Below are positions 13,538 through 19,220 of a DNA stretch of 19,220 bases, one piece after another (the first letter of the stretch is position 1; each line of letters begins with the position of its first letter). The stretch is from a virus (taxonomy: Duplodnaviria > Heunggongvirae > Uroviricota > Caudoviricetes), in the IMG/VR virus record IMGVR_UViG_2778261559_000018, one strand, 5' to 3'. A model generated the notes under the pieces. The model did not search any database, was not told the DNA's origin, and worked only from the letters and a program-made list of their open reading frames with translations. The translations under genes were made by a program, and so were the position numbers.

Positions 13538-13741
13538 CATTTTCACTTTTTTAAATCCAACGACAGACGGCTGGCATTTAAGTATTGTGAAATATTATCA
13601 AATGTAATCATCATTGATTTACAAAAGATACATTTTGCCCCGAAAGGATTCATGTCAGAAACATCAAAAGATGATGTTCTATACTGGGAACCATGACAAC
13701 ACGGGCATCTAAAGTGAATATGGTTTGTAATATTGTCTACC

Positions 13742-13954
13742 TCAAAGCGCCACTACATGAACAGCGGCAGGACCTTTAGGTCCGTTCTCAATACCAAATT
13801 CAACTTCCTGATTCTCAGTTAATGTTTTGAAATCGTTGCTCTGAATTGCTGAGAAATGGACAAACACATCTTTGCTGCCATCTTTCGGCGTGATGAAACC
13901 AAAACCTTTTTCAGGGTTAAACCATTTCACTAAACCAGTCATTTTGTTAGACAT
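13742..13954 (-). CDS. cspI: Cold-shock protein CspI
   Basis: 70 aa [70 protein letters not shown] with RNP motifs; matches E. coli CspI as remembered; long AT-rich 5' region. Confidence 0.95.
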
Positions 13955-14316
13955 AATTATTACCTTTTGAAGAAATTAGCCCTTGGGCAGAATGGTCCGA
14001 AAAAAAATATCAGAGAGAAAAACCAACAAGGAAATCTCAAGAGGTACAAATAATAAAATTATAACAATGACTGCTTCAGATAAATTTGTAACAAACCAGA
14101 ACACCATTAACGCATGATTAACCACCCATAGCAAGGATTACTTTTGTAAAGAAAAACACAGCAATGAAAGAATAGCTTTATTTATTAATAAAACGTGTCA
14201 TTCTGATTAAGACCTTTTATCTTACCCTTAAGATTTCAGGAATTTTGGCTCATGGAAGAGTCCTTTTTATTTAAATTTTACATTCCGCGATGTAAATGTT
14301 CCGATTTAATATTACC

Positions 14317-16344: not shown

Positions 16345-16625
16345 GAGATTGTGGTGCTTTTTGTGGGAGTCATCCACTTACGCACTTTGTTTTGCGATGC
16401 CAGCAGTTAGCTTCTGCTGTGAAACTATTCATGCAGCAAACCTGCACTTCACCACAATGGTTAGCATACTTTTCCTGATTAAGATTTTGCCAAATATGCT
16501 AGCCATTGTTTCATGTATTGGACCTCCTTACTTTTTATTAAAGAGATCCAATATTCACTACTCTGTCCGTATCTCTACTCAGGCATCAGCCTTCTTCGTT
16601 ATCGTATACAGACGAGCGATGAATT

Positions 16626-16841
16626 TTAATCAGTAATGATGACATTTGCTGCTGCAGGACCTTTAGCACCTCTCTCTATAGAGAAGGTAACCTTTTGACC
16701 TTCAAATAAGGTTCGATAATTATCATTCTGAATCGCAGAAAAATGCACAAACACATCTTTACTACCATCAACAGGAGAAATAAAGCCGAAACCTTTATCA
16801 GCGTTAAACCATTTTACTAAACCAGTCATTTTATTTGACAT
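16626..16841 (-). CDS. cspB: Cold-shock protein CspB
   Basis: 71 aa [71 protein letters not shown]; matches E. coli CspB as remembered. Confidence 0.95.
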
Positions 16842-17139
16842 TCTACATTCCTTAACTTGAGCCTTTCGGCATAAATGGTTTGCATAACAGAAACGACTTC
16901 GTACTTAATTGGAGAGACTCAAAGAAGGAATAAGTGAATAACACCTGAAATGAGAACTGCTTTAGTAAACTACTTCGTATATCGTCTGTTCTTCAAACCG
17001 ACGCAGTCATTAACTCATAGTTGAACATATGAAGCAATGTTTATTTTAGACATCCAGCCACCTTCAATCCTATCAAAAAAGTAGTTTTCTCCAGGAACGT
17101 GTGTATGGTGCACCAGGTTATCAGTATTAAGGAGTTTTT

Positions 17140-17345
17140 CTGTCCCCTAAAATGACAGGAATTGTCAAAAACTTTGACTACAAAAGCAGCAAAGGTCTTA
17201 TATTCCCATCCGATGGCGTATCGATGCCCAGCTTCACGTTTCAGCTCTCAATCTTCGAGATGCAGAAGAAATTACCACAGGATTACGCGTGGAATTTTGC
17301 TGGATAAATGGTTCGCGTGGACCTTCAACTGCCAATGTTTATCCC
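17140..17345 (+). pseudogene. cspF: cspF-like cold-shock gene, inactivated: single-base deletion frameshift after the SDG codons, CTG at the ancestral start position, no in-frame stop after the domain
   Basis: Frame 1 encodes (L)[25 protein letters not shown] and frame 0 continues [42 protein letters not shown]; together one cold-shock domain split at about 17217; AAGGAG sits 5 nt upstream of the CTG. Confidence 0.55.
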
Positions 17346-17384
17346 GGGATGAGATTCAATATCTCTATTGCCCCATTTAAAGCA

Positions 17385-17420
17385 CAAAAACCCGCTTATA
17401 AGCGGGTTTTCTACTTTTTT
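17385..17420. terminator. Bidirectional rho-independent terminator: cspF terminator on plus, tR'-like terminator of the short late leader on minus
   Basis: Perfect palindrome cccgcttataagcggg flanked by A5 upstream and a T-rich tract downstream. Confidence 0.6.
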
Positions 17421-17456
17421 CTAAACGTCGGATACACAAAGCCCATCGTTGAGAAA

Positions 17457-17485
17457 ATCTTATCCATATTTTTTGAAAAATGCAA
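17457..17485 (-). promoter_or_regulatory. Candidate late promoter pR' (-35 TTGCAT, 17-bp spacer, -10 TAAGAT) with lambda-like initial transcribed sequence CTCAACGATGGG
   Basis: Lies just downstream of the Q stop on the minus strand; the initial transcribed motif matches the lambda pR' pause region as remembered; hairpin terminator about 55-65 nt downstream. Confidence 0.5.
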
Positions 17486-17516
17486 ACATCATGTCGCCAT
17501 CTTCAGCAAAAATCAT

Positions 17517-19220
<1,704 letters not shown>

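Follow-up and report, generated by a model that had tools for sequence, protein, structure and literature searches.

The closest described system is the pR'-qut-tR' region of phage lambda. Its antiterminator Q gives its name to the Q-lambda family (PF03589), in which the elements follow this order: the Q gene, the promoter pR', a Q-binding element, a sigma-dependent pause element, a terminator and the late genes; in lambda the Q-binding element is located in the spacer between the -35 and -10 hexamers (PMC9388147). The lambda record has, in this order, TTGACT, 17 nt, TAAATT, TGACTC and AACGATGGG. The RNA which ends at the lambda terminator is the 6S RNA, which binds Hfq and has a few partners (bioRxiv 10.1101/2024.10.31.621285). 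Shiga-toxin phages have a further example, StxS, which acts in trans; its pR' transcript is made constitutively and, in lysogens, stops at tR' (PMC7547250). Salmonella phage P22, with a late promoter behind gene 23, and the Qin prophage of Escherichia coli K-12, in the intergenic region from ydfT/quuQ to cspF, are two other loci which can be compared with ours.

The stretch of DNA that we have analysed, which we will call the window, has a length of 19,220 nt. It contains a site of this kind on its minus strand, just after the remains of a Q gene. We estimate a probability of about 0.85 that this site is a late cassette of the lambda-Q type, with pR', Q-binding element, pause element and tR', which belongs to a Qin-like lambdoid prophage. 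The cassette is an ordinary late-gene switch of a well-known kind, but it has no annotation. Its features are collected in Table 1. The sequence-only reading of this region had also proposed a late promoter similar to lambda pR'. It is supported in the type of promoter, the pause element and the close terminator; its statements on the leader, on Q and on cspF have to be modified, as discussed below.

Table 1. Position of the late cassette and of the neighbouring features in the window
Feature	Positions	Strand	Basis
Pseudogene of cspF, which converges with the leader; frameshift of 1 bp, stop codon lost	17152-17380	plus	ORFs, alignment to K-12
U tract with the predicted 3' end of the RNA, UUUUUGUGC	17382-17390	minus	alignment to the Term-seq 3' end of K-12
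Intrinsic terminator hairpin (tR'), palindromic, GC-rich, with an A tract on one side and a T tract on the other	17387-17410	either strand	terminator scan (plus), fold (minus)
Predicted 5'-terminal RNA hairpin, +1 to +27	17424-17450	minus	AACG:CGUU pairing, inner GGG/UCC stem; fold and covariation
GGG directly after AACGAT	17444-17442	minus	sequence
AACGAT, predicted +1 to +6, -10-like sigma-dependent pause element, identical to that of lambda; register kept in about 80 related cassettes	17450-17445	minus	
TTTCTC between -10 and pause element	17456-17451	minus	sequence
-10 hexamer TAAGAT (TAAAAT in K-12)	17462-17457	minus	sequence, alignment
17-bp spacer TTTTCAAAAAATATGGA	17479-17463	minus	place of the lambda Q-binding element; blocks TTC and TGG kept in Qin-type loci
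-35 hexamer TTGCAT	17485-17480	minus	sequence; invariant in Qin-type cassettes, TTGCAA/TTGACT/TTTACT in relatives
3' part of the antiterminator gene Q (homolog of ydfT/quuQ), stop codon 17519-17517	17517-17657	minus	alignment to the intact Q of DEC9B
IS3-family element (ISEc31/IS911-like), 1258 bp, splits Q, with a CGT target duplication (3 bp) at its ends	17658-18915	plus	boundaries by alignment, transposase ORFs, ISEc31-family annotation in matching genomes
Middle fragment of Q	18916-19143	minus	alignment to the Q of DEC9B; Q genes of E. coli match up to about 19143

The hexamers TTGCAT and TAAGAT, separated by 17 bp, had been noticed on the minus strand and are indeed present at 17485-17457; the promoter starts 32 nt after the end of the Q remnant (17517). 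The two hexamers coincide with the sigma-70 consensus in 3/6 (-35) and 4/6 (-10) positions and are absent from the list of a consensus promoter scan. Since they are weak and not listed by the scan, the case for the promoter rests on positional homology and conservation and not on a consensus score: the hexamers are present with the same 17-bp spacing and conserved across related cassettes. The sequence AACGATGGG begins at 17450, 6 nt past the -10 hexamer. The 12-mer CTCAACGATGGG (17453-17442) occurs a single time in the window and is identical to lambda pR', in the same register of -10, 6 nt and AACGAT, so that the proposed match to the initial transcribed region of lambda is borne out. A chance origin of this match was considered and rejected: only 0.07 matches are expected per window, allowing up to one mismatch, and the register is that of lambda. 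An alignment to lambda pR' had been proposed as a check; besides the 12-mer it shows 11 identical positions among the 17 of the spacer. From this homology and conservation we infer a promoter with its start at about 17450. Just upstream of the -35 hexamer there is a block GATGGCGACATGAT (17491-17503, minus strand) which is kept in all Qin-type cassettes; it resembles the sequence GGATGGCAACATATT found at the equivalent position in lambda and P22.

The similarity with lambda is apparent in the whole arrangement. In both cases the promoter is found just after Q, the spacer has 17 bp, there are 6 nt up to AACGAT followed by GGG, the terminator is intrinsic and the lysis genes are found downstream. 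The Q proteins are homologous: the intact ortholog of the Q found in the window and lambda Q both belong to PF03589 (E = 3e-54 and E = 6e-58, respectively), with 41% identity between them. The differences are also clear. The leader has 194 nt in lambda and 65-69 nt in the window cassette. Six of the 17 spacer positions are mismatched, so that the specificity of Q probably differs from that of lambda. Beside the pause element lambda has a -35-like TTGACT, which in the window is a degenerate TTTTCT. Finally, the Qin-type Q has an extra zinc-ribbon insert of 47 residues, and in the window this gene has been inactivated.

P22 shares the Q family, the AACGAT element and a leader of about 59 nt with two hairpins, but its promoter and spacer are nearly those of lambda, while the Qin type has a distinct spacer and distinct terminator sequences. 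K-12 Qin is much closer: its cassette is near-identical and differs from that of the window, over the leader, by three substitutions and by two deletions of 1 nt, and the 3' end at its terminator has been mapped. It differs by an intact Q, a better -10 hexamer (TAAAAT), an intact cspF and an additional segment of 257 bp with the gene ynfS. StxS has no sequence similarity with the leader of the window. It is also different in that it is a product of 74 nt, made by RNase E from a transcript of 258 nt, and in that its binding to Hfq and its targets are established.

The 761 bases around the cassette are 100% identical to those of strain DEC9B and 93.6% identical to those of K-12. A match to this region is found in 2,397 of 5,426 complete E. 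coli genomes; the number of genomes in which cassettes are counted is 1,635-2,397. A cassette with over 93% identity, placed behind an intact Q, is present in K-12, DEC9B, the phages Tritos, SfV and mEp460 and the Stx2c phages. We have also considered HnrS, a 66-nt small RNA from an EHEC prophage, which has been reported in 99% EHEC/EPEC strains (PMC13502914), against the proportion of genomes with cassettes just given; we do not equate it with the RNA of the cassette.

Viral contigs contain 22 variants of the Qin type, in which the -35 hexamer, the spacer, the -10 hexamer, AACGAT and the leader length are all kept; AATGAT or GACGAT are found rarely as variants of the pause element. The changes in the stem and loop of the terminator compensate each other: CCCGCT/AGCGGG, CCTCGC/GCGGGG and ACCGCC/GGCGGT. 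Right past the U tract the sequences diverge completely. Conservation up to this point and abrupt divergence after it are the mark of a functional module located at a mosaic boundary. The search of viral contigs for related loci gave near-identical Q loci only; the diversity of the family comes from tblastn on phages and on species-representative genomes. In the phages and in the 80 species-representative genomes, with Q proteins which are 36-72% identical, the geometry is shared: a -35 hexamer, 16-18 bp, a -10 hexamer, 5-8 nt and a -10-like hexamer, usually with GGG next to it.

Leader length was measured in 86 distinct leaders as the distance between the pause element and the last U of the run in the first terminator. 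The median of these cassettes of the lambda-Q type is 64 nt and 70 of the 86 have a leader within 53-79 nt; some examples are P22 (59 nt), a Stx2a phage (65 nt), SEN34 (62 nt) and a Yersinia phage (55 nt). Lambda, with its 194 nt, and a few others constitute a separate class with long leaders of 160-200 nt. The lambda leader is a minority form, an outlier of its own family. In the window the leader has 65 nt when it is counted up to the last U of the run, and 69 nt (17450 to 17382) if its 3' end is the one mapped in K-12. This length had been presented as unusually short, but it is typical: an average member looked exceptional because it had been compared with lambda alone, which is atypical.

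The terminator found at the end of this leader is a hairpin AAAACCCGCTTATAAGCGGGTTTT. It lies 40 nt beyond 17450 and is followed, on the minus strand, by one more T and GTGC. The description of a perfect palindromic hairpin with a T tract is accurate: it has 24 nt (17410-17387). The terminator scan calls it terminator-like on the plus strand, and the 70-nt RNA folds with -21 kcal/mol (z = -2.6). A terminator has been annotated at the equivalent place in the records of phages SfV and Ayreon. Rfam has no family which matches the leader at gathering score; the matches below threshold are at chance level and are driven by the terminator hairpin.

Direct information on the end of this RNA is available for K-12. 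Adams et al. 2021 (PMC7815308) give in their Term-seq tables a 3' end at position 1642356 of MG1655, minus strand, in all three growth conditions, where it is classed as 'orphan'. The mapping of the 3' end had been suggested as a way to check the reading, and the K-12 ortholog gives a positive answer, with an end on the expected strand and at the terminator. It has about 104,000 and 55,000 reads in two rows of the tables, the same order as the 3' end of the hokD mRNA in those rows. The sequence at this end reads ...GCGGGUUUUGUGC, with flanking sequence ...AAAACCCGCTGATGAGCGGGTTTTGTGC; it is found 8 nt past the stem, as expected of intrinsic termination. The RNA from the predicted +1 of K-12 (1642422) to the mapped end has 67 nt. 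Read-through of the Q mRNA could in principle be a source of the same end. The supplements of Cappable-seq (PMC4782308), of the TSS profiling of Kim 2012 (PMC3415461) and of RNET-seq (PMC7876045) have no TSS entry near 1642422, and we have found no annotation of the promoter or of the RNA of the cassette in K-12. Term-seq also has a second orphan end on the minus strand, at 1642188 in one condition. It is antisense to ynfS, 168 nt beyond the 3' end of tR' and inside the 257 bp which are missing from the window; it would indicate that in K-12 tR' is read through to some degree, or that there is another promoter.

On the other side of the hairpin we find cspF. When compared with K-12, the absence of 257 bp has removed from the window the last codons of cspF and the small gene ynfS. 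This deletion and the 1-bp deletion in cspF are common to the window, DEC9B and phage Tritos, and RefSeq describes the identical copy of cspF in DEC9B as 'frameshifted; incomplete'. In the window the open frame of cspF continues through the hairpin. The same hairpin had been said to terminate cspF on the other strand, a claim which we do not maintain: in the window cspF has a frameshift and no stop codon remains, whereas in K-12, where cspF is intact, this gene and ynfS are more than 250 bp away from the hairpin. Furthermore, Term-seq in K-12 has no plus-strand 3' end at the hairpin, in a context different from that of the window and with a weak expression of cspF. With its A tract and its T tract the hairpin could stop polymerases from either direction; bidirectionality is a property of the sequence only.

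The Q gene of the window is a dead remnant, truncated at its 5' end and disrupted by an insertion element. The site had been located downstream of the Q stop codon; the position is correct, but the gene before it is not functional, since its first 385 nt, approximately, are absent from the window and an IS element occupies 17658-18915. The junction of this element with Q has no single contiguous match in the 5,426 complete E. coli genomes. A match to isrC in Rfam, at 17726-17848, falls within the IS element. Beyond the Q homology there are 77 bases (19144-19220) which match nothing among the sequences compared: they are a second rearrangement, at the edge of the window.

By homology with lambda the cassette would work as follows. 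The sigma-70 RNA polymerase would start at about 17450 on the minus strand. Region 2 of sigma would then bind again, to the non-template AACGAT at +1 to +6, and the complex would pause. The pause is predicted near +13 to +16, at +13 or +15. A consensus T-N-Y-G has been given for the scrunched paused state (PMC9191641); two sequences of the leader fit it, TTTG (+11 to +14) and TGTG (+13 to +16). Without Q the RNA would end at the hairpin and U tract with a length of about 65-69 nt, an end which has been shown for K-12. A cognate Q, with a predicted binding site in the -35/-10 spacer, would load on the paused polymerase and lead to read-through of the terminator, antisense to cspF and into cspB and the lysis genes. 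Because the local Q is truncated and disrupted by the IS element, the cassette of the window would make the short terminated RNA only, unless a Q of like specificity is provided by another prophage. The genes found downstream on the minus strand are cspB, a holin similar to that of phage 21 (S21-like), ydfR, an R21-like endolysin and rzpQ. The cspA thermoregulator RNA (RF01766) has two full-length matches on this strand, at 16610-17002 and 13715-14100, ahead of cspB and cspI; thus cold-shock genes with their own leaders sit inside the late operon.

A feature which we have not found in descriptions of other cassettes appears at the beginning of the leader. The initial 4-5 nt (+1 to +5), which belong to the pause element, have a complement at +19 to +27 in nearly all cassettes, and the two sides covary. 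The pairs of 5' and 3' arms are AACG/CGTT, AACA/TGTT, AATG/CATT, AATA/TATT, GATGA/TCATC, CATG/CATG, TCGT/ACGA and, with G-U pairs, AAGGA/UUCUU. The presence of G-U pairs points to the RNA and not to the DNA level. MAFFT misaligned the 3' arms when loop lengths were different; for this reason we have used a permutation test and a gapless subset. In total 81 distinct leaders were anchored on the promoter geometry or, for about 24 loci, by hand on the pause element; the 3' arm did not serve as an anchor in any of them. Of the 81 leaders, 57 contain the exact Watson-Crick complement of their own +1 to +4; with arms exchanged between classes this number is 7.9 on average (sd 2.1, maximum 15), although the relatedness of the sequences inflates this test and that of the gapless set alike. 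CGTT follows AACG in 35/39 cases and TGTT follows AACA in 15/15. The gapless set consists of 20 lambda-like leaders; pairing is found in 98% of its cells, against 25-56% in slid controls, and 3/5 pairs have changed on both sides; this subset was partly picked by complementarity, so that only its covariation counts as evidence.

These results lead us to propose, tentatively and with more doubt than confidence, that the pause element has a second role as RNA: it would be the 5' arm of a conserved hairpin, and the terminated transcript would have a fixed shape with two hairpins and about 55-70 nt. Such a 5' hairpin may guard both transcripts, the late one and the short one, against decay which depends on the 5' end. 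It may also help to keep the RNA threaded through the nozzle formed by Q (PMC9388147). Rfam has no family for it and we have found no description in the literature searched, although older papers on 6S RNA may mention it. If the proposal is true, the abundant RNA of about 67 nt from K-12 Qin, which has no annotation, would be a stable prophage RNA with its own function.

The same RNA could be looked at in a different way, as the product which has been selected: a prophage small RNA acting in trans, with two hairpins joined by an A/U-rich linker. This would be compatible with a Q switch. The abundance of the orphan 3' end in three conditions in K-12, where the prophage is cryptic, is in agreement with it, as well as the persistence of the cassette in the window with a dead Q; StxS and the Hfq-bound 6S RNA of lambda are precedents (PMC7547250; bioRxiv 10.1101/2024.10.31.621285), and the conserved 5' hairpin could stabilise a small RNA. 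However, the single-stranded linker is the only candidate for a seed and it varies among close relatives, UAGAAAAAAGUAGAAA vs UGAUAAGAUUUAAGA vs UAACGAAAUCAUAACAA. We have not found any record of Hfq binding or of targets for the leader RNA, nor a family in Rfam. We consider that a selected trans-acting RNA is unlikely.

A simpler interpretation is that the hairpin is just a terminator shared by the upstream ydfU-Q operon and the convergent cspF/ynfS, and that the promoter-like hexamers are inactive remnants. A palindrome with tracts on either side is in agreement with such a terminator, but K-12 has no plus-strand 3' end there. As for the hexamers, their weak match to the consensus, their absence from the promoter scan list and the lack of TSS entries near 1642422 in the supplements searched would fit with inactivity. 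Inactive remnants would hardly explain that the register of -35, -10 and pause element is kept across loci whose Q proteins have an identity of only 36-42% while the flanking DNA diverges, nor the 12-nt identity with lambda pR' in a shared register. This interpretation appears to us very improbable, and the late cassette of the lambda-Q type is the reading that we prefer.

As a late cassette of this type, the site provides an explanation for an 'orphan' RNA 3' end in the transcriptome of K-12. It adds the late promoter, the pause site and the terminator, left blank in genome annotations, of a prophage which is common in E. coli. Its leader has a typical length, and both Q and the neighbouring cspF are pseudogenes in the genome of the window; it is the long 6S leader of lambda which is the exception in its family. 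In spite of the dead local Q, the Q of a co-resident prophage could switch on the cassette in trans: the Stx2c phages, which have a 94% identical Q and carry the same cassette, are an example of a possible source. The covarying 5' hairpin is the sole part of the case which deserves to be followed up; if confirmed, it would mean that a textbook DNA element is also under constraint at the RNA level.
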